64,000 nt of DNA from an uncultured Eubacteriales bacterium (GTDB lineage: Bacteria > Pseudomonadota > Alphaproteobacteria > RF32 > CAG-239). The stretch covers positions 72,636-136,635 of the forward strand of contig CAVGVF010000001.1 in NCBI GenBank assembly GCA_963632615.1, in the 5' to 3' direction. The translations under genes were made by a program, and so were the position numbers. Positions 2,754 to 57,190 of this stretch are shown piece after piece. Each line of letters opens with the position of its first letter. The first letter of the stretch is position 1. The notes under the pieces were generated by a model. That model made no database searches. It was not told the DNA's origin and worked only from the letters and a program-made list of their open reading frames with translations.

Positions 2754-3698
2754 ATGAGCAGAAATTTATATGATGTTTTAGGTGTTGGCAAAACAGCTTC
2801 TGAAGCTGAAATCAAGTCGGCTTACCGTAAATTAGCGCGCAAATATCATCCGGATTTGAATAAAGATGATAAAACCGCGGCTGATAAATTTAAAGAAGTT
2901 TCAAATGCCTATGATATTATCGGCAATGCCGAAAAACGTAAAAAATACGACAATAATGAAATAGATGAAGAAGGAAAGCCTACCGGTTTCGGAGCCGGAT
3001 TCGGCGGAGCTCAAGGCGGTTTCAGAGGCTATCAAAGCTATGGCGGCAACCCGTTCAGCGGATTTTCAAGCCGAAGCTTTAACGGCGGAACACAGGGCGG
3101 TTTTGATTTTTCATCCATTTTCGGAGACGATATTTTTTCACAGTTCGGCGGTGCTCAAGGCGGTTTCAGACAGCGCACGGCGCCTCAGCGCGGGCAGGAT
3201 GTCGCTTATAATATGAGAGTTGACTTTTTGGACGCGGCCAAAGGTGTTGAAAAGCAAATAAGCTTAAACGGCAAAAACATAAACGTAAAAATTCCGGCCG
3301 GTATGCAAAGCGGCCAGACCATGCGCCTGAAAGGCCTTGGCAATGTCGGCTTGAACGGCGGCGAAAACGGCGATGTTTTAATAACCGTAAATGTCAATGA
3401 ACATCCGTATTTTAAAGCAGACGGCTTAAATATTTTATTAGATTTGCCGATTTCGGTAAAAGAGGCTATCAGCGGCGCTAAAATCACCGTTCCTACCATC
3501 AACGGCAAAGTTGCGGTAACTGTTCCGGCCTTTTCTTCCAGCGGCGAAAAACTGCGTCTGAAAGGCTTAGGCATAAAATCTAAAACCGGACAAGGCGATG
3601 AAATAGTCAATTTGCAAATTGTTTTACCAAAAGTAAAATCCGATAACTTAGCTGAAGCCGCCGAAAAAATGGAAAATTACGCAGTTAGGAGCTTTTAA
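2754..3698 (+). CDS. cbpA: DnaJ-class co-chaperone without zinc finger (CbpA-like)
   Basis: J domain with HPD motif (YDVLGV...[10 protein letters not shown]), a G/F-rich linker and a DnaJ C-terminal domain, but no CxxCxGxG repeats. Confidence 0.7.
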
Positions 3699-6317: not shown

Positions 6318-7436
6318 ATGCGTATGTGGATTATACTTTTTGTTATTTTGATTTTTTCAACCCTTGCCGGCTTGGCCTATTTAACCAGCCGTGTGGCAAA
6401 ATTTGCGTTTCTGCTGAAAATGGCCGGCGATAACACAAAATTGCTTTATTTTATCAGCCTGATTGCTGTTTTAGCGGGTTTCGGCATTCTTTGCCTAAGC
6501 CTGAATTTAATGAACGCGGTTATAGTACTGCTGCATTTAATGATTTTTTGGCTGCTCAGCGACCTTGTTTTCGGGATTATCGAACATTATCAGCCGCAGC
6601 CTTTCCAGCACTACTACGCCGGAGCCGCTGCTTTGTTTTTGACTATAGCAGCTTTGGGAACAGGCTGGTTTCTTGACCACCATGTCTGGACAACTTATTA
6701 CACTCTGGAAACAGACAAGACAGATAAACCTCTGCGTATTGTGCAATTTGCGGATTCGCACATCGGCACAACTTTTGACGGAGATGGTTTTGCCAAATAT
6801 GTGGAATATATGCAAACTCTTAATCCGGACGCCGTAGTTATTGTCGGCGACTTTGTAGATGATGATACAATGCTTGAAGATATGAAAAAAGCCGCTCAAG
6901 CTTTAAGCAAGCTAAAAACAACTTACGGCGTTTATTTTGCTTTCGGCAACCACGATAAGGGCTATTACAGTCCGGAAAGGCGCGGCTATACCGGCACGGA
7001 TTTAATTAACGAACTGCAAAAAAACAGCGTTAAAGTTTTGCAGGACGAAGCTGTGCTTCTGGACAATAATTACTACATTGTCGGACGTAAAGACTTATCG
7101 GAATTTTACCGCGGCGGCAAACGTGAAAATATGGATACTTTGGTAAAAAATCTGGATAAAAGCAAATACATTGTCGTTTTAGACCATCAGCCGAATGACT
7201 ACAAAAGCCAAGCCGCCGAAGAAGTTGACTTGGTGCTTTCCGGACACACTCACGGCGGGCAGCTTTGGCCTCTGAATAAAGCCGGAGAATGGATGGGCGC
7301 CAACGACAAAACCTATGGCTACGAGCGCCGCAATTTGACTGATTTTATCGTAACTTCCGGAATTTCCGACTGGGCTATAAAATTCAAAACCGGTACAAAA
7401 TCAGAAATTGTGGTAATCGATATAAAAAATAAATAG
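6318..7436 (+). CDS. membrane-anchored metallophosphoesterase (calcineurin-like)
   Basis: 3-4 N-terminal transmembrane helices followed by the phosphoesterase motifs DSHIG, GDFVDD, GNHD and GHTHGG. Confidence 0.7.
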   Translation: MRMWIILFVILIFSTLAGLAYLTSRVAKFAFLLKMAGDNTKLLYFISLIAVLAGFGILCLSLNLMNAVIVLLHLMIFWLLSDLVFGIIEHYQPQPFQHYYAGAAALFLTIAALGTGWFLDHHVWTTYYTLETDKTDKPLRIVQFADSHIGTTFDGDGFAKYVEYMQTLNPDAVVIVGDFVDDDTMLEDMKKAAQALSKLKTTYGVYFAFGNHDKGYYSPERRGYTGTDLINELQKNSVKVLQDEAVLLDNNYYIVGRKDLSEFYRGGKRENMDTLVKNLDKSKYIVVLDHQPNDYKSQAAEEVDLVLSGHTHGGQLWPLNKAGEWMGANDKTYGYERRNLTDFIVTSGISDWAIKFKTGTKSEIVVIDIKNK

Positions 7437-7447
7437 ATTCAAAAAAA

Positions 7448-7477
7448 ATCCTTGGTTATACACCAAGGATTTTTTTA
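7448..7477. terminator. intrinsic terminator
   Basis: atccttggttatacaccaaggat hairpin followed by a T-run. Confidence 0.6.
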
Positions 7478-7490
7478 TAGAGATGATAAG

Positions 7491-7832
7491 CTACTTAACT
7501 TCAACATCCAATTCTGTTGGAACGTCTTCAACAATAGCCATTGCTTCTGCTGTCTTGCCTATATCTATTCCGCAAAGGTTTCCGTCTCTTTTGAGCCAAT
7601 CTGCAACAGTATTATTAAAGCGTGTGCAGACATTCTCAAAAGCAGGATAACCTCGTTTTGTGTAATAGTCTTTAACATTATCGGCTAAAGACTTACTCTC
7701 ATCGTATACATAGTCAACTGCATTCCTTAGAATGTGTGACACTTTGTCATAGTTATCAATAGGATCTATTCTATTGATAATACGACCAGTAGCAACAGAA
7801 ACACTCATCCTAATTTCTAAAATCTCCGTCAT
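7491..7832 (-). CDS. hypothetical protein
   Basis: 113-aa ORF, divergent from the HExxH protein gene. Surrounded by very AT-rich DNA. Confidence 0.3.
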   Translation of the reverse strand: MTEILEIRMSVSVATGRIINRIDPIDNYDKVSHILRNAVDYVYDESKSLADNVKDYYTKRGYPAFENVCTRFNNTVADWLKRDGNLCGIDIGKTAEAMAIVEDVPTELDVEVK

Positions 7833-8039
7833 AATCTAAAATATTAAGGGTAAATAAAATAAATTAACTCAATAAACATAAGTAAAATAGATATTTCCTC
7901 AAAAAAAGAAAACAACGAAAATTACAAAACATAATTTCAACTATAATACTTATATTAAACAATTTCAGTATAACGTATTTTTAGCTAAATGACAATATTA
8001 TTTGTTTATTTTTAGTCAAAAAAGTGCTAGTATGCAGTT

Positions 8040-9134
8040 ATGATAAGCAAAGAAGAATATAAATGGTTGGAACACCATACGGATATTTTGAACAATGTGC
8101 CTGATATAAACGATTACGCACAGCAAAATATTAAGTTTAAAGTATATCGCCCCGGCCATGTTCAAAAAATCAAAAATATCTTCAAAGAATATCAGTGTAT
8201 CAGCGGCCAAAACAAAAATGATATATGGGTAAAAGTCAAAGGCTTAACTATTGATGATTTTAACGACATTGCCGGCCGCTGCTCGGCGGATTTGATTTAT
8301 GATATGTCGGCGCATGATATAAACTATATCCCTATGAATAAAAAACATAATTACAAAATCATACGCCGTTCCACCGCTAAACTGCTTTCAAATTTAAACA
8401 ACCGTAAAAAGCTGGATATTTTATTTTCTTTTGCACAAGGAATTTTTACTTCTGACAAAAAATATAAACGCCAGTTTGACTTTATTGAGCAAAACAGCAA
8501 CAAATTTATTGCTTTGCTTCAGCTTAAAATCAACAAAGATTTTATGCGCCAAGAATATAAAAAAGTTAATAAAATAACCGAACAAATAACAGCTCTTCCG
8601 AATATTCGAAAGAAATTGGAGAATTTTGCCTTATTGCCTAAAACTGAACAATTCAGCCTTTTGAAAGAAACCAGTCGCATTACCGCTGAAGTGAACGGCG
8701 TAACACCGCCAAACATTCATTTTATTACAAATAAACAGGCTCATAAGGATTCCAAGATTGCAGAATGGGTGCAAACCGATGCTTACGCCGGTTTTCATGA
8801 TATTTACATCAACAAAGATTTATTAAAATCATACAGCGGTATAGAAGCCTTGTCTTTGGCTTTTCATGAAACCACGCATATTGCTCAATCTAATTCTGAT
8901 TATTCTGAATTTCCGGAAATTGAAGAGATGTTCAGCCACCGTTTAGACTATCTGCAAAACCATGCCGATACCTATACAGCCATACCGATGGAAATGGTAA
9001 CTTATAACCTGGAGCAGGAATTTTGCGAACAGCTTGACAGCAAATTAAATATGAAAATGCACGATTACGAGTATGAAACCGAATATAATAATGCGCAGCA
9101 ATATATGATTAAAGCCTTGCGCCGCTCCCGCTAA
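8040..9134 (+). CDS. hypothetical protein with HExxH zincin-like motif (DUF4157-like signature HETTHIAQ)
   Basis: Motif LAFHETTHIAQ followed by an acidic segment (EFPEIEEMF) that could supply the third ligand. No signal peptide. Upstream flank 7840-8040 is very low GC. Confidence 0.45.
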   Translation: MISKEEYKWLEHHTDILNNVPDINDYAQQNIKFKVYRPGHVQKIKNIFKEYQCISGQNKNDIWVKVKGLTIDDFNDIAGRCSADLIYDMSAHDINYIPMNKKHNYKIIRRSTAKLLSNLNNRKKLDILFSFAQGIFTSDKKYKRQFDFIEQNSNKFIALLQLKINKDFMRQEYKKVNKITEQITALPNIRKKLENFALLPKTEQFSLLKETSRITAEVNGVTPPNIHFITNKQAHKDSKIAEWVQTDAYAGFHDIYINKDLLKSYSGIEALSLAFHETTHIAQSNSDYSEFPEIEEMFSHRLDYLQNHADTYTAIPMEMVTYNLEQEFCEQLDSKLNMKMHDYEYETEYNNAQQYMIKALRRSR

Positions 9135-9667
9135 ACTTCTTTATTGCGGCGCAGCAAAATATACAAGGCTCCGCTCCCGCCCATTTTTTCTGACGGATGC
9201 TTATAAATCAAAATCATTGCCCTGAGGCGCGCCATATTCAGCCATTGCGGCACTTGCTTGCGCAAAACGCCTTTAGCGGCAAAAATATCTTCATCGGGAT
9301 GAACGCGTATTCCTTTGCCGGTAATAATCATCACACAGCGCCGGCCTAAAGCGTAACTTTGCGGAATAAAGCTGTCTACTTTGGCAAAAGCCTCATCCTC
9401 TGTCAGTCCATGCAAATCCAAAACCGCTTCAACTCTAAACTCTTCGCGTTTGAATTTACGCAGAGTTGACTTGTCTATTCCGCCGTTTTCAAAATCGTCT
9501 AAAAACTTGGAATAGGTAGAAAATTCCTGCTTTATGGCATAATACGTTTTTTCTTTTGGCGCAATCGGACGGGGTTTAGCAACAGATACAACCTGATTTG
9601 ACGCCGTTTTTTTAATATCATTAACCGCGTCCAGCCAAAATTCTTCATCTTCGCTTTGCTGGGTCAT
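9131..9667 (-). CDS. Smr domain protein
   Basis: C-terminal Smr signature LDLHGLT...; 178 aa. Confidence 0.55.
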   Translation of the reverse strand: MTQQSEDEEFWLDAVNDIKKTASNQVVSVAKPRPIAPKEKTYYAIKQEFSTYSKFLDDFENGGIDKSTLRKFKREEFRVEAVLDLHGLTEDEAFAKVDSFIPQSYALGRRCVMIITGKGIRVHPDEDIFAAKGVLRKQVPQWLNMARLRAMILIYKHPSEKMGGSGALYILLRRNKEV

Positions 9668-52779: not shown

Positions 52780-52854
52780 GGTCCCATCGTCTAATGGTTA
52801 GGACATCACCCTTTCACGGTGGCAATATGGGTTCGAGTCCCGTTGGGATCACCA
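52780..52854 (+). tRNA. tRNA-Glu (anticodon TTC)
   Basis: GGTCCCATCGTCTAATGG...CCTTTCACGG...GGTTCGAGTCCCGTTGGGATCACCA. Promoter TTGACC-N17-TATATA upstream. Confidence 0.85.
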
Positions 52855-52890: not shown

Positions 52891-53090
52891 ATATATCTGT
52901 AATTCTGGGGCTGGAACCCATAAAAATGTGTTTGACCTGCAGTCGGCAGGCAGACGTGTATGCCGGTTGCGAACTTGTGAGCAAGCCGACAAAGGCGGCG
53001 AAGCGTCAGCGCAGCCAGTCCCGTTGCGCTATTATCGATATTTCAAACAGTATTCTGCCTTTTGGTGGGGATTTTTATATATCTGTAATT
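52869..53090 (+). repeat. 36-bp imperfect direct repeats (52869-52904 and 53055-53090) flanking a GC-rich ~150-bp insert
   Basis: CTGCCTTTTGGCGGGGCTTTTTATATATCTGTAATT versus CTGCCTTTTGGTGGGGATTTTTATATATCTGTAATT. Confidence 0.6.
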
Positions 53091-53101
53091 TATGATTTAC
53101 A

Positions 53102-53638
53102 TTAGTTTCTTTGAGAATTATTTTTTATTCTTAACAACAAAGGTGTCAAAATGTCTTTTTTTAGAATTTCTGTAGCTTCATTATTAAAATAATTTTCGGT
53201 ATCTTTTTGTTGATAGGCACCTTTTCTTTTATAAGAAAATTTAAAACCATTTTTATTTAAAAGTCTTTGCAACATTGGTAAATTTCTATCAGATACCGTT
53301 ATAAGAGGTTTATTCGTATTTAATACTTCACAACTTTTTCTTATGATTTTTCTTGCAATTCCTCTACCTCTGCAATCTTCTCTTACAAATAAACAGCAAA
53401 TTTTCTTTTCTTCATCAGTATCTTTTAAAAGAGCGACTCCTATTGGAGTATTTTCTTTAATATAAGCTATAATAATTTTTCTTTTTCCGCTTTTTAATTC
53501 TGGAAAAAATTTGTTAAACAGCCATTCATTATGTTTTGGATAAGTATCATTGATTGATTTTGTCAGTTTTGCAATATTTTTATAAAGTACCATATCATTT
53601 ACAGAAAATTTATTGATGGCTTTAATTAGATAATTCAT
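53102..53638 (-). CDS. GNAT-family N-acetyltransferase
   Basis: Acetyl-CoA binding motif RGRGIARKII; 178 aa; very low GC. Confidence 0.65.
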   Translation of the reverse strand: MNYLIKAINKFSVNDMVLYKNIAKLTKSINDTYPKHNEWLFNKFFPELKSGKRKIIIAYIKENTPIGVALLKDTDEEKKICCLFVREDCRGRGIARKIIRKSCEVLNTNKPLITVSDRNLPMLQRLLNKNGFKFSYKRKGAYQQKDTENYFNNEATEILKKDILTPLLLRIKNNSQRN

Positions 53639-53710
53639 TTTTATTCTCTTTACAAAGTTAAATTTTTATTTAGTATAACAAATATTACTAATACAATCAA
53701 GGAGATAAAA

Positions 53711-54046
53711 ATGCAAAAATTAAATGTAAAAGAAAAGTACTATAATATGCTGAAACAAGGGACAAAAACAATAGAATTGAGATTATTTGATGACAAGAGA
53801 AAAAATATAAAAGTTGGTGATATCATTGAGTTTTCAAATAATTCTGATTCAGAAGACACTTTTTTAGCACAAGTTGTAAAATTGCATCGAGCAGATAATT
53901 TTGAAGAATTATGTAATAAAATTAATTGTCACAATGCTGGTTTTGAAACAAATCAAGACCTTATGAATGTATTGGAAGAATTTTATTCTTTAGAGCGCCA
54001 AAAAGAATTAGGCGTTGTCGGTATTGAAATTAAGAAAATTGATTAA
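53711..54046 (+). CDS. ASCH (PUA-like) domain protein
   Basis: 111 aa. N-terminus KEKYYNMLKQGTKTIELRL is typical of the ASCH beta-barrel. RBS AAGGAG. Confidence 0.45.
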   Translation: MQKLNVKEKYYNMLKQGTKTIELRLFDDKRKNIKVGDIIEFSNNSDSEDTFLAQVVKLHRADNFEELCNKINCHNAGFETNQDLMNVLEEFYSLERQKELGVVGIEIKKID

Positions 54047-54100
54047 CATGCAAAAAATGCCTCTTTATTAGTATCTGACTAATTTTGAGGCATTTTTAAC

Positions 54101-54286
54101 TTATCTTACGCACATGCAATAAAGTGTTATTACAATCATTGCAATAGCATACCATTTTGTTATTTTCCAAGAAGTTTTTTTATCTTCTTTATAACGGTTT
54201 TCATATTCTACCTTGTTTGTCATTTCAAGCAATCCAAGATAAATGAATGTGCAAACCAAAATTGCTATAAAATAAGCAGCTGCCAT
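54101..54286 (-). CDS. small two-TM hypothetical membrane protein
   Basis: 61-aa ORF with two hydrophobic helices; weak. Confidence 0.25.
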   Translation of the reverse strand: MAAAYFIAILVCTFIYLGLLEMTNKVEYENRYKEDKKTSWKITKWYAIAMIVITLYCMCVR

Positions 54287-54451
54287 AATTATTAAATATT
54301 AAAAATAAAAAACTGCTTGGATTATAATATAATGTCAATATTTTGTCAAATTATATTATTTGAGATAAAAAAAGCCAAAGATAAAACAGTTTTAAGAATT
54401 TGTATTTTACAAAAATAAAAAATCGCCTCTTAAAAGGCGATTTTCATGAAA

Positions 54452-54475
54452 TGATGCCATTAGCAAGAAAGTCCA
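54452..54475 (-). pseudogene. orphan 3'-terminal fragment of tRNA-Thr with duplicated terminator
   Basis: Minus strand ...tcttgctaatggcaTca matches the tRNA-Thr 3' end apart from CCA to TCA. Part of a ~55-bp direct repeat (54416-54472 versus 54596-54652). Confidence 0.55.
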
Positions 54476-54595
54476 TCGCCTGACGGCTCACGACATCTCC
54501 GCCGCCTGCGCATAAGTTCGCTTGGCGATGTCGATTTCGGACTTTCGGATTGCGTTCGCAATCTTTCGCAAGTCTTCTTCTTGCTTAATTAAAAC

Positions 54596-54626
54596 ATAAA
54601 AATCGCCTCTTAAAAGGCGATTTTTA
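54596..54626 (-). terminator. intrinsic terminator after tRNA-Thr
   Basis: Minus strand atcgccttttaagaggcgat followed by a T-run. Confidence 0.65.
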
Positions 54627-54631
54627 TGAAA

Positions 54632-54706
54632 TGGTGCCATTAGCAAGAATCGGACTTGCGACCCCGTCATTACCAATGACGTGCTCTACCACTGAGCTAT
54701 AATGGC
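54632..54706 (-). tRNA. tRNA-Thr (anticodon GGT)
   Basis: Minus strand GCCATTATAGCTCAGTGGTAGAGCACGTCATTGGTAATGACGGGGTCGCAAGTCCGATTCTTGCTAATGGCACCA. Confidence 0.85.
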
Positions 54707-54865
54707 GTGACTAAACTAAAAACATAATACTTAACAGATGACGGGGTCTGCTCCCCCGCTTGTCGGTCTAGGCTCGCCGCGGTCGTTTGCACTTTCCTTG
54801 CTTGCCAAGCCCTTCCAAGGCGTTACAGACAAAAATAACAAAAAATTGTTATTTTTGCTTAGCCG

Positions 54866-54901
54866 CTACCAATGACGTGCTCTACCACTGAGCTATAATG
54901 G
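54866..54901 (-). pseudogene. orphan 5' half of tRNA-Thr (positions 1-36, breakpoint in anticodon loop)
   Basis: Minus strand GCCATTATAGCTCAGTGGTAGAGCACGTCATTGGTA is identical to the first 36 nt of the intact gene 160 bp away. Confidence 0.7.
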
Positions 54902-55081
54902 CAACGCTCAAAACTCATCAACTGAAACATTTCAGCAACAAATTTCATATAACAACATACAGATATGATTTTAAAAATCAATGTATTTTTTTATAAAAGT
55001 GCAAAATTTATGCAAAATTTTTACCATTTACCGAATATAGTAGCCCATGATTATTGTAAAAATAAAGAGTTAGAGGGAAAA

Positions 55082-57190
55082 ATGAGCGCTAAAAATCCTG
55101 AAAAAAAATTGAAAAAAACTGATAAAACCGAAAATTTTGCTTTGCCTGAGCAGCCGGAAAGCTGGTTTGCCAACGGATTGCATCGTTTTATGATTGTTTT
55201 TAGCGTGATGTGGTTTGGTATTGTGGCTGTTTACATTACGGAATTTTTTGGCTGGGATAATCTTTTTTCTATGGTGCCGAATGAATTTAGCGGTTTTATG
55301 GCCGGTATGACGCTGCCTTTGGCTATTGTTTGGGTGGTTATGGCGTATATTGACCGCGGCAGCAGCTTTCGAAACGAGACACAGATGCTGCGCGATTCGC
55401 TTAATCGAGTGATTTTTCCGGATTCTAACGGCAGTGACGCTACTAAAATGATTGCTGATGCCATAAAAGCACAGGTTTCCGACTTAAAAGAGACTACCCG
55501 GGATGTCTGCGCTCAGGCCGATGTGATTAAACGCGATTTAAGCGACCGTATAGCCGAAATGAAATCGCTTGCCGGCGAATTAGACACCTACTCTTCGCAA
55601 ACAATGCAGGAACTGAATTCAGAAATTAAAAAATTGGTTGAAAACTTTACGTTTGTGGCCGAAAAAGCCGCTTCCACAACTGCTGATTTTAGGGTTAATA
55701 CTTTGCAGATGCGTGAAGACAGCGAGCAGCTTTCCAATATTATGAAGCCGATGGTTAATGAAATGGTTACAGCTGCCGAAAATATTAAAGAGGTTGTGAA
55801 TGTAAACAATGAAAATATAGAAAAAGCTCAAGCGCAGCTCAATAATTATTCGGAATCCAGCCAGCTGGCGATTGGGCGGATTATTGAATCATGGGCTGAA
55901 AAAGGCGAAAATCTTGAAAAAACATTTTTGCGTACAGCTGAAAATTGCGAAGAGCTGTTTCATCGTTTGGATTCCGGAATATCGCATATCGAAACCAGCA
56001 TAAATGAGCAAAAAACCGTAGTTGAACAGCAGTCGGCTATTTTGGATAAAAACTCCGGCTATCTGGATAAAAAGCTTGGCGAGTACGGCAAGCTTATCAG
56101 TTTGGAAGTAGAAGCTATGATTGAACGTTCCAATACTTTGGAGCAAAATATTCAGACTCAGATGAAAAATATGCGTGAAGCCTCGGCTCAAACCGAAGAA
56201 ATTTTCGGCCGTTTGGGCTCTGATATAGCCAATAAACGCCAGCTGCTGGAAACTGAGGGCAGCAGAATGATTAACAATATTCATCTGACTATCGGCACAC
56301 TGGGCGATGAAGTGGCGCGTTTACAGGATTTTTATAAAAATACGCAGGACAAAAACAGCGAGCTGGGCAAAGTTTTTTCTTCTATTGCTCAAACATTAAA
56401 AGAAATGGAAGACGGCTTGCTTGCCAGCGTTAATAATTTCAGTACCAAAGCCGGCGGCGTGGTTGATAAATTTAATGAGGTAAACAGTCTTGTTTCCGGA
56501 AATATCGGTAAGTTATCTGAAACTGCCGACAGCATTGCCAACCAAAGCAAAACCAATGCCGGATTGCTGATAGAACAAGATGAATATGTCAACAAAGCTC
56601 TGGGCAGCTTAAAGCAAATCAGCACGCAGATTTCCGCTTTGAATAAAGATATGTCGGCATCTGCCGGCAGTATCGGCAAAACATTGTCTGTATATGAAAA
56701 CAAAATGTCGGCGTTCAGCAAAGCTTTAGGCGAGCATTTGACTGATTTGAACGAAAATTATGATAAAACTCAAAAGCAATATGATGAATTTAATCAAAAA
56801 TTTAAGGTTGCGAGTATTGATACGTTTATGAAGAATTCTGCCGATATTATCAGCGAATTAGAGACTATTTCCATTGATATTAACAGTATCTTCAACAAAA
56901 CCGGCGATGACGAGGCTTTATGGAAAAAGTATTATGAAGGCGATCATAGTGTGTTTGTGCGCTATCTTTCTAAAAATATGACCAAAAAAGAAGTGATAGC
57001 CGTGCGTGAAGATTACGAAAAGAAGCCGGATTTCCGTGTTGTGGTTGACAAGTATCTGGATGATTTCAACAGCCTGATAGAAGCGGCTCGCAGCAATAAC
57101 CGCGCCAGTACTTTGCTTGCTTTGATTTCCGGTTCGGATATCGGTAAAGTTTATTATATCTTGTCACGCGCTTTAGGAAAGGTAAACTAG
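55082..57190 (+). CDS. membrane-anchored long coiled-coil protein
   Basis: RBS AGAGGGA; two or three N-terminal transmembrane helices then ~600 aa of heptad-rich Q/E/K/N sequence. The track ORF starts at 54965, upstream of the RBS. Confidence 0.5.
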   Translation: MSAKNPEKKLKKTDKTENFALPEQPESWFANGLHRFMIVFSVMWFGIVAVYITEFFGWDNLFSMVPNEFSGFMAGMTLPLAIVWVVMAYIDRGSSFRNETQMLRDSLNRVIFPDSNGSDATKMIADAIKAQVSDLKETTRDVCAQADVIKRDLSDRIAEMKSLAGELDTYSSQTMQELNSEIKKLVENFTFVAEKAASTTADFRVNTLQMREDSEQLSNIMKPMVNEMVTAAENIKEVVNVNNENIEKAQAQLNNYSESSQLAIGRIIESWAEKGENLEKTFLRTAENCEELFHRLDSGISHIETSINEQKTVVEQQSAILDKNSGYLDKKLGEYGKLISLEVEAMIERSNTLEQNIQTQMKNMREASAQTEEIFGRLGSDIANKRQLLETEGSRMINNIHLTIGTLGDEVARLQDFYKNTQDKNSELGKVFSSIAQTLKEMEDGLLASVNNFSTKAGGVVDKFNEVNSLVSGNIGKLSETADSIANQSKTNAGLLIEQDEYVNKALGSLKQISTQISALNKDMSASAGSIGKTLSVYENKMSAFSKALGEHLTDLNENYDKTQKQYDEFNQKFKVASIDTFMKNSADIISELETISIDINSIFNKTGDDEALWKKYYEGDHSVFVRYLSKNMTKKEVIAVREDYEKKPDFRVVVDKYLDDFNSLIEAARSNNRASTLLALISGSDIGKVYYILSRALGKVN

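Follow-up and report, generated by a model that had tools for sequence, protein, structure and literature searches.

Transfer RNA fragments and GC-rich structured modules in short repeat units around a tRNA-Thr(GGU) gene of uncultured gut and rumen Alphaproteobacteria

Introduction

Partial copies of a transfer RNA (tRNA) gene next to the complete gene are found in several described systems, of which the tyrT/rtT repeats of Escherichia coli appear to be the closest analogue of the locus analysed here. This locus surrounds a tRNA-Thr(GGU) gene in a 64,000-nt stretch, hereafter the window, of contig CAVGVF010000001.1 from an uncultured alphaproteobacterium (GTDB lineage RF32, CAG-239); coordinates refer to the whole window, and all features of the locus lie on its minus strand. 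RtT RNAs are described as being released when tRNA transcripts are processed, the E. coli units being transcribed together with the tRNA (PMC4986893). The tyrT-tyrV region of E. coli K-12, which was checked for this comparison, holds three 178-bp tandem repeats that reach 19 nt into the 3' end of the tRNA-Tyr gene tyrV, with the small RNA (sRNA) RttR annotated inside. Both loci thus have tandem units of about 180 bp beside a tRNA gene, each with the terminal 18-19 nt of the tRNA, and the spacing is 180 bp in the window and 178 bp in E. coli. However, the window shows no match to the Rfam RtT family, either at the gathering score over its whole length or at E values up to 10 in positions 53800-55300, and it additionally contains upstream units carrying the tRNA 5' half through the anticodon loop, for which no described counterpart is known to us. 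The spacer of these upstream units, named el1, covaries across genera, and its copy number is polymorphic within species, which also sets the locus apart from tyrT/rtT.

Genomic islands and prophages inserted in tRNA genes share with this locus the direct repeats of tRNA fragments, the breakpoints in anticodon and T loops, the existence of occupied and empty sites, and the integrases and cargo found at this same tRNA in relatives. Contrary to such islands, the window has no integrase, its units measure only 196 and 180 bp, and the intervening sequence is conserved and structured instead of decaying. In islands it is the 3' part of the tRNA gene that is displaced; this agrees with the downstream repeat of the window, whereas the upstream repeat consists of the 5' part. 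Regeneration of the tRNA gene with its 3' part by genomic islands is described in the Islander publication (PMC4383910). In actinobacteriophages, Guerrero-Bustamante and Hatfull 2024 (PMC10865867) describe a tRNA-dependent lysogeny in which the inserted DNA supplies a complete tRNA of the same isotype beside a disrupted tRNA fragment. The window, too, has a tRNA fragment beside a complete gene, but that system needs an integrase prophage, and the 3' part of the host gene stays behind at the far junction, whereas here the alleles differ by 196 bp and are identical downstream.

Group I tRNA introns and the split tRNAs of Nanoarchaeum resemble the locus in their interruption next to the anticodon; the break at 37/38 is that of archaeal introns and split tRNAs. 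Contrary to the introns, however, the window shows no Intron_gpI match and has a complete tRNA after el1 instead of a 3' exon. In contrast to the split tRNAs, an intact tRNA is present, the only other fragment comprises the last 18 nt, and a separate 3' half carrying a complementary leader did not turn up.

The reading favoured here, to which a probability of about one half is assigned, is that tRNA-Thr(GGU) lies within two short tandem-repeat systems, each unit consisting of a tRNA piece and a GC-rich structured module, which expand and contract by homologous recombination. Close strains differ in their number of el1 units and the empty alleles are precise, while the downstream unit sits at an attachment site of the T-loop type, where other strains have cargo islands.

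Repeats flanking the tRNA-Thr(GGT) gene

The tRNA-Thr(GGT) gene is detected by ARAGORN and scores 70.3 bits with the Rfam tRNA model. The repeat finder shows its bases 1-36 (54671-54706) duplicated without a mismatch (36/36) at a spacing of 196. Since the D loop of this tRNA is one base short, the orphan copy extends to canonical position 37, the base just 3' of the anticodon. The 160-nt spacer between orphan half and gene, el1, has a G+C content of 46%, compared with 17-30% in the adjoining intergenic DNA and 41% in the whole window.

On the other side of the gene, the final 18-19 nt of the tRNA together with the terminator belong to a 59-nt direct repeat of 92% identity (54411-54469 and 54591-54649, start-to-start distance 180), in the second copy of which GGCACCA has become GGCATCA. 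Both terminator hairpins are detected by the terminator scan. In all, the window contains 1.18 units of 196 bp, based on the 5' half, and 1.33 units of 180 bp, based on the 3' end; the 36-nt repeat ends after position 37 and the 59-nt repeat begins in the T loop. An exact 36-nt repeat and a 59-nt repeat at 92% identity are far above chance. The preliminary description of this locus had reported an intact tRNA flanked by a copy of its 5' half and a duplicated 3' end with terminator, an arrangement that ARAGORN, Rfam, the repeat finder and the terminator scan confirm; its 36-nt exact copy stands, but the position given for it, 54901-54866, is off by one (Table 1).

About 50 nt upstream of the orphan half lies a promoter-like sequence, TTGATT-16 nt-TATGTT, which fits 8 of the 12 consensus positions and falls under the threshold of the promoter scan. 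The pair TTGATT..TAT(G/T)(T/C)T also precedes the locus in nine loci from other genomes (L002, L003, L004, L007, L009, L012, L123, L130, and L140). Judged from its sequence, this is probably the start of a transcript running through the orphan half, el1 and the tRNA. A possible internal promoter in the el1 tail, (T/C)AGACC..(T/G)ATTAT, has a spacer of just 14-15 nt and is not reported by the promoter scan. The repeat-bounded segments of 160 and 125 nt in the window contain no noteworthy open reading frame (ORF).

The upstream unit among relatives

The 196-bp unit, consisting of 36 nt of tRNA and el1, is found ahead of tRNA-Thr(GGU) in roughly eight lineages of Alphaproteobacteria from gut and rumen. 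Homologues of el1 are found before tRNA-Thr(GGT) in L003, L017, L098-L105, L130-L133, and loci within L083-L095, where L089 and L092 are empty. The junction, at which CATTGGTA is followed by GC(G/T)GCTAAG, is common to the window, L003, L017, L098, L099, L100, L101, L103, and L130-L133, and holds over two distinct gene neighbourhoods.

The closest comparison is provided by 10 loci from the window's species, with a neighbour protein of 98% identity, and 6 from a sister species (93%). Among the latter, L096 and L097 break off no later than at the orphan half and are not scorable, so that four sister-species loci are informative. el1 is present in 8 of the 10 and in 3 of the 4, respectively, the empty close relatives being L082, L089, and L092. 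Downstream of the tRNA, occupied and empty alleles are identical, and the exact 196-bp unit is what distinguishes them, as in L090 (occupied) and L089 (empty). Precisely where the orphan half starts in the window, the intact tRNA starts in the empty alleles L002, L082, L089, and L092; L002, whose Dus protein is 91% identical, carries a single intact tRNA in its place. More distant relatives show intermediate states. L003 (Dus 73% identical) has the layout of the window, with a diverged orphan half and a spacer of about 74% identity, and in L017 (Dus 59%) the AT hairpin of el1 is wholly different in sequence and keeps its hairpin form. Only a decayed orphan half followed by 13-20 nt is left in L004 and L012. 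No trace of the upstream unit is seen in L007 and L009, and it is also absent from L123-L127.

Variation in unit number is clearest in the species with protein P0139, where the differences among L130, L131, and L132 occur beside an identical neighbouring protein. Here, L131 has the promoter, the el1 core and the tRNA, with no orphan half; relative to it, L130 has one extra unit of 5' half and full el1, and L132 has at least two, reaching at least 2.7 units in all. L100 has 1.3 units plus, downstream, an el1 core located between the decayed 5' and 3' parts of a pseudo-tRNA-Thr; this core scores 124.6 bits with the covariance model. This pseudo-tRNA (minus strand, index 1905-2081) has an intron-like layout with no duplication, and a remnant of the el1 right-hand block lies before it. 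Depending on the strain, the number of units is thus 0, 0.67, 1.2, 1.7, or at least 2.7.

In one scan each of the genome and metagenome collections, el1 was found nowhere away from this tRNA. The metagenome scan with the el1 right-hand block returned eight loci, of which four (L098, L100, L101, and L103) belong to divergent lineages, and all eight sit at tRNA-Thr(GGT); a covariance model built from the el1 sequences found additional copies solely at the same gene. Across about 30 loci, the el1 unit never encloses an integrase or any other gene. Among viral contigs, the queries with the el1 right block and the junction gave no match (0 and 0), the rod motif of el1 gave 16 matches, which is about the number expected by chance and none of which fits the covariance model, and the tRNA 5' half gave a single contig, in which a serine recombinase neighbours a complete tRNA and an orphan half is lacking. 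In that contig (L137, 53% G+C), the large serine recombinase, with Resolvase and Recombinase domains (7349-8965), adjoins a tRNA-Thr(GGT) (9130-9204) whose bases 10-36 are identical to those of the window tRNA. GenBank phages and PLSDB plasmids match only the tRNA itself, with neither el1 nor an orphan 5' half.

Structure of el1 and its invariant 11-mer

The evidence that el1 is structured is comparative, since folding of the single sequence is not significant (z = -1.8). A consensus of 10 sequences has 37 pairs, in which 95.1% of the cells pair, compared with 37.6-53.3% when the partners are slid. Compensatory changes occur in 14 of these 37 pairs, compared with 2-5 in the slid controls, and none of 500 shuffles matched any of the observed pairing measures. 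With 12 sequences, including L130 and L017, 16 of 29 pairs are compensatory. The pairs include 19 G-U cells and only 4 A-C cells, indicating that the folded strand is the tRNA strand. The internal loops of the consensus rod are purine-rich and conserved, AAGYAAGGRAAGYG...RCRACCG...RCGAG. From sequence comparison, el1 is thus a conserved structured sequence on the tRNA strand, located between promoter and tRNA in many lineages. Compared with Rfam, the whole window and, at permissive settings (E up to 10), positions 53800-55300 gave only the tRNA and chance matches, so that el1 is apparently an undescribed structured RNA carried in a leader.

One arm of an el1 hairpin is an 11-mer, GACCCCGTCAT, that exactly complements tRNA positions 38-48, the bases just after the junction, a feature not mentioned in the preliminary description. 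An 11-nt complement of this kind arises in 1 of 2000 shuffles. The 11-mer is identical in the three lineages that were found by synteny and not by pattern (the window, L003, and L130), while its partner arm varies (GCGGGG or GAGGGG), so that the constraint falls on the 11-mer itself.

Several other readings of el1 were discarded. A small ORF is at odds with the alignments, in which neither the possible start codons nor the reading frames are preserved and the lengths of indels are not divisible by three. Searches by eye for a group I P1 pairing and for hepatitis delta virus (HDV), hammerhead, and twister cores gave nothing convincing, and there was no Rfam match. The sequence ATGACGG, which follows the el1 core in L098, L101, and L103 and was considered as a remnant of the tRNA 3' half, is absent from the window, L003, and L100, and is probably a by-product of covariation in the rod. 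As a separate observation, the small hairpin CGCCTTGGAAGGGC of the window el1 (54809-54821) is nearly identical to CGCCTTGGTAAGGGT (L139, about 3296-3312), an anticodon-loop-like core adjoining the phage-type integrase of the viral contigs L138 and L139; other el1 lineages carry GCCCGAAGGC at this place.

History of the orphan half

Five lineages (L003, L098, L100, L101, and L130) share a derived orphan D arm, GCTTTAG..TAGAGC, that lacks two G residues, which suggests descent from one ancestral orphan copy. L103, close to L098, has a canonical orphan half. In L101, it is the full-length tRNA-Thr (1389-1463) whose D arm is of the orphan type (GCTTTAGAGTTAGAGC) and lacks the conserved GG, so that gene conversion from the orphan copy has apparently altered the working gene. 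Together, the canonical orphan of L103 and the orphan-type tRNA of L101 indicate that conversion goes in both directions. The 36/36 identity in the window is therefore best explained by conversion, rather than by a recent insertion. Likewise, the presence of the unit or of its remains in deep relatives makes deletion between the 36-nt repeats the simplest account of the empty alleles in the window's species.

The downstream unit and the variable-island site

The module of the downstream unit, el2, lies between the first terminator and the second tRNA 3' end. The 3' arm of its first hairpin (54540-54575) mimics the 5' strand of the T arm and the start of its loop (CGAAAGTCCG), an acceptor-like GCCGTCA (54481-54487) can pair with the terminal TAATGGC, and the segment folds together with its terminator at z = -3.5. 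A similar build, with a T-arm-mimicking hairpin, a GC-rich insert, a tRNA 3' end and a terminator, is found in L007 and L130. The comparison involves only three highly divergent sequences and yields one compensatory pair, in the acceptor-like helix. Among the strains compared, el2 was found in no other member of the window's species or of the sister species.

The interval between tRNA-Glu and tRNA-Thr is variable among strains, holding an NgoMIV restriction-modification (R-M) system, DNA methylases, ankyrin proteins or unknown ORFs. In L092, L093, and L095, a decayed copy of the tRNA from the T loop to the 3' end (CAGTCCGAT...GCACCA), with a terminator, lies about 2 kb from the tRNA, past a cargo island of two unknown ORFs or the NgoMIV R-M system, and is followed by the same flank as in the window at 54101-54309. 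The second 3' end of the window holds the same position as these distal fragments. This shared position and flank identify it as the distal boundary of the variable-island site, which in the window contains el2 alone (125 nt). Terminator 1 is unlike the proximal terminators of other strains, while terminator 2 resembles the distal terminator of L092 and L095; the proximal terminator of the window is a copy of the distal one, which yields a 180-bp unit flanked by 59-nt repeats.

In most relatives, a different module of about 65 nt recurs after the tRNA terminator (L085, about 2440-2520; L131, 2010-2080; L130, 1630-1690; also L007, L009, L002, L098, and L124). It has a hairpin CGGACT..AGTCCG that mimics the T arm, together with GAAAAYRSCATTTTT, which is conserved, and ATCGGACTTTTT in inverted orientation. 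Possible identities for this module are an attachment site, a small RNA and a very small element with inverted repeats; the window lacks it as such. The sequence AAGTCCGAT was tried as a genome-wide repeat and discarded, as it is not enriched in the window (12 found, 11.8 expected).

Integrases are found at this tRNA in other genomes. In the three related species of L129, L127, and L140, a tyrosine integrase of 500-585 amino acids and a DUF6626 protein lie directly downstream of tRNA-Thr(GGT), accompanied in L129 by a type I R-M system. Between the tRNA terminator and this pair there are 3-4 direct CCGTCA/ACGTCA repeats, 12 nt apart in L129, which from their sequence are probable integrase binding sites and which resemble the tRNA anticodon stem and the el1 11-mer. 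In the viral contigs L138 and L139, a 344-amino-acid integrase adjoins a fragment of this tRNA that extends from the anticodon loop to the 3' end; the end of the L138 contig (5665-5709) is Illumina adapter sequence. None of these five integrase loci (L129, L127, L140, L138, and L139) has el1.

Origin of the repeat units and alternative explanations

If the tandem-repeat reading is correct, one old duplication would have made the junction after position 37, and unequal homologous recombination together with gene conversion between the tRNA-half copies would then have added, removed and homogenised units. el1 would be transcribed as a 5' leader of the tRNA. By analogy with RttR, which is freed from the tyrT transcript in E. 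coli, el1 most likely forms part of a leader from which RNase P, cutting at tRNA +1, would release it as a stable RNA of about 200 nt; inside the precursor, the 11-mer may pair with tRNA positions 38-48. The downstream unit could have arrived or been duplicated via recombination in the homology of 3' end and terminator. Several points weigh against this account. The founding duplication and the release of el1 as an RNA are both inferred, the latter by analogy. el1 has been lost in many strains and species, so that any function must be dispensable. The first 12 nt of every orphan follow the resident acceptor sequence in each lineage, which would require frequent mosaic conversion or unexplained selection. 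The covariation sample is small, with 10-12 sequences from about eight lineages, four of which were recovered with a pattern that fixes the right-hand block. Finally, a sequence complementing what lies 3' of the junction resembles a target-recognition feature, and so does the el1 core of L100, placed within a pseudo-tRNA without duplication.

Another reading is a mobile module without genes that targets position 37/38 of tRNA-Thr(GGU), recognises its target partly via the 11-nt complement, folds as RNA or single-stranded DNA for recombination, and regenerates the gene with its 5' half; an RNA of 5' half and el1 might then act on cleaved or precursor tRNA-Thr. This reading is considered unlikely. 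A small non-autonomous integrative element, a refinement of the idea in the preliminary description that is considered unlikely, though slightly less so, would instead be a 196-bp unit with nothing but an attP, inserted in the anticodon loop by a tyrosine integrase acting in trans, regenerating the gene with its own 5' half, perhaps with a promoter, and forming arrays by repeated insertion. The anticodon loop is a classic crossover site, L138 and L139 have a phage-type integrase beside an anticodon-loop-to-3'-end fragment, and presence varies within species. Moreover, the point of the unit at which arrays start on the promoter side differs, the 11-mer fits the flank of the target and has similar CCGTCA repeats beside the integrases of L129, L127, and L140, and the hairpin CGCCTTGGAAGGGC resembles the L139 core CGCCTTGGTAAGGGT. 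However, no larger parent and no copy away from this tRNA was found, and viral, phage and plasmid collections do not contain the unit. RNA-type covariation of one strand, with G-U pairs, is unexpected for integrase arm sites. An insertion should leave the canonical half of the host, yet five lineages share a derived D arm, and with the unit or relics in deep relatives the empty alleles are simpler as deletions. The preliminary description had seen the locus as a hot spot of tyrosine integrases, where an element with the tRNA 5' portion in its attP was reduced to remnants. The hot spot holds for the downstream side, with its cargo islands, distal fragments and neighbouring integrases in relatives, but the upstream side is not a shrunken element: there is no gene between the repeats in any of the roughly 30 loci, and spacer and orphan 5' half are missing from viral contigs, phages and plasmids. 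The comparison of strains that it had suggested did reveal occupied and empty sites, and the difference between them is the exact unit.

The locus could also be a neutral scar, an old duplication or decayed island whose functionless modules persist by chance. This would agree with the dispensability of the unit (absent from L002, L082, L089, L092, L007, L009, and L123-L127), with the decayed or truncated orphan halves of L004, L012, and L017, and with the lack of a gene. It is nevertheless very unlikely, because compensatory changes keep the structure across lineages whose Dus proteins are only 59-73% identical to that of the window, the AT hairpin of L017 is new in sequence and still a hairpin, and el1 of the sister species is 96-97.5% identical, compared with 90% for the flanking intergenic DNA. 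Nor would independent decay produce the similar el1 length, the same junction and the base-pair covariation seen in every lineage, as opposed to the remnants previously proposed; alleles that differ by exactly 196 bp and multi-unit arrays both fit homologous recombination between tRNA-half copies. Conservation of the arrangement without a mobile element, which had been taken as a sign of an old neutral duplication, is borne out in so far as the arrangement recurs in many relatives, but its presence varies and it is not neutral. Lastly, el1 might derive from an intervening sequence at 37/38, intron-like or from a split tRNA, with an uninterrupted copy later placed behind it. Position 37/38 is the canonical site of archaeal tRNA introns and of split tRNAs, the third el1 core of L100 lies between the 5' and 3' parts of a pseudo-tRNA-Thr with no duplication, and a 5-bp P1-like pairing of UUGGU with GCUAA, with a terminal U-G, can be drawn from the sequence. 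Such a relic is highly improbable. No group I or II intron model appears among 20 matches at E up to 10, and el1 (110-160 nt) is below the size of a group I core. The duplication makes the last exon base and the last intron base identical, which excludes the U/G rule of group I splicing, and bacteria are not known to possess a bulge-helix-bulge splicing endonuclease. In L131, moreover, el1 is a plain leader with no preceding 5' half.

Feature coordinates and gene neighbourhood

Table 1. Coordinates of the locus features in the window and of the repeats beside integrases in relatives.
Feature	Coordinates	Strand	Evidence or remark
Promoter-like TTGATT-16 nt-TATGTT	54954..54981	-	Read from sequence; ~50 nt upstream of orphan half
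Orphan tRNA-Thr 1-36 (acceptor 5' strand, D arm, anticodon-stem 5' strand, loop to A37)	54867..54902	-	
el1 structured module, 160 nt	54707..54866	-	Homologues, covariation
el1 AT hairpin	54827-54860	-	
el1 small hairpin	54809-54821	-	
el1 irregular purine-rich rod, AAGCAAGGAAAG..CGACCG..GCGAG	54768-54808	-	
el1 hairpin	54741-54759	-	3' arm is the invariant 11-mer
el1 11-mer GACCCCGTCAT	54738-54748	-	Complement of tRNA 38-48
el1 AT-rich tail	54707-54737	-	
Intact tRNA-Thr(GGT)	54632..54706	-	ARAGORN, Rfam
Terminator hairpin 1, inside 59-nt direct repeat	54595..54628	-	Repeat finder, terminator scan
el2 GC-rich module (50% G+C)	54470..54594	-	Folding, similarly built modules elsewhere
Second tRNA 3' end TTCTTGCTAATGGCATCA, identity from T loop on, CCA to TCA	54452..54469	-	
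Terminator hairpin 2, closes 180-bp repeat unit	54418..54445	-	Repeat finder, terminator scan
CCGTCA/ACGTCA repeats	L129 9650-9690; L127 2130-2180; L140 2630-2680		

The locus is flanked on one side by a 702-amino-acid protein, Dus, TrkA and BipA, and on the other by a GNAT protein, an ASCH protein, tRNA-Glu, a polysaccharide deacetylase and LysRS. The closest relatives recovered by scanning genome contigs were uncultured Alphaproteobacteria from gut, faeces and rumen. One of them, L002 (CAVEOB010000028.1), is deposited as a [Ruminococcus] gnavus bin; its synteny with the alphaproteobacterial window and its 91% identical Dus protein indicate that the contig is mis-binned.

Between tRNA-Glu (52780-52854) and tRNA-Thr, positions 53000-54400 form a stretch of very low G+C content (17-30%), which holds the GNAT acetyltransferase (53102-53638, minus strand) and the ASCH-domain protein (53711-54046, plus strand). 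A perfect sigma-70 consensus, TTGACA-17-TATAAT (54321-54349, minus strand), precedes an ORF of 61 amino acids (54101-54286, minus strand) that has no Pfam match and whose region is about 95% conserved beside the distal tRNA-fragment site in the sister-species loci L092, L093, and L095.

Many short-read assemblies break at the locus, with numerous contigs of about 4.82 kb carrying the 702-amino-acid protein. In L017, L122, L132, L133, L134, and L096 the contig ends at the locus, and several of these stop inside el1 or the orphan half. These breaks are probably caused by the repeats of the tRNA half and by the el1 units.

Significance

el1 is a candidate for a new structured RNA family of about 130-160 nt, supported by covariation, in a group of uncultured Alphaproteobacteria of the human gut and the rumen that is almost unstudied. 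More generally, partial tRNA copies beside tRNA genes are not always scars of integration. Here, the tRNA 5' half would provide the homology that lets an RNA-bearing unit expand, contract or vanish precisely, as a 5' counterpart of the tyrT/rtT repeats. Methods for finding islands that treat repeats of tRNA fragments as att sites would miscall such a locus. For the tRNA itself, the case of L101 suggests that a working gene can acquire a defective D arm when the orphan copy acts as donor in gene conversion.

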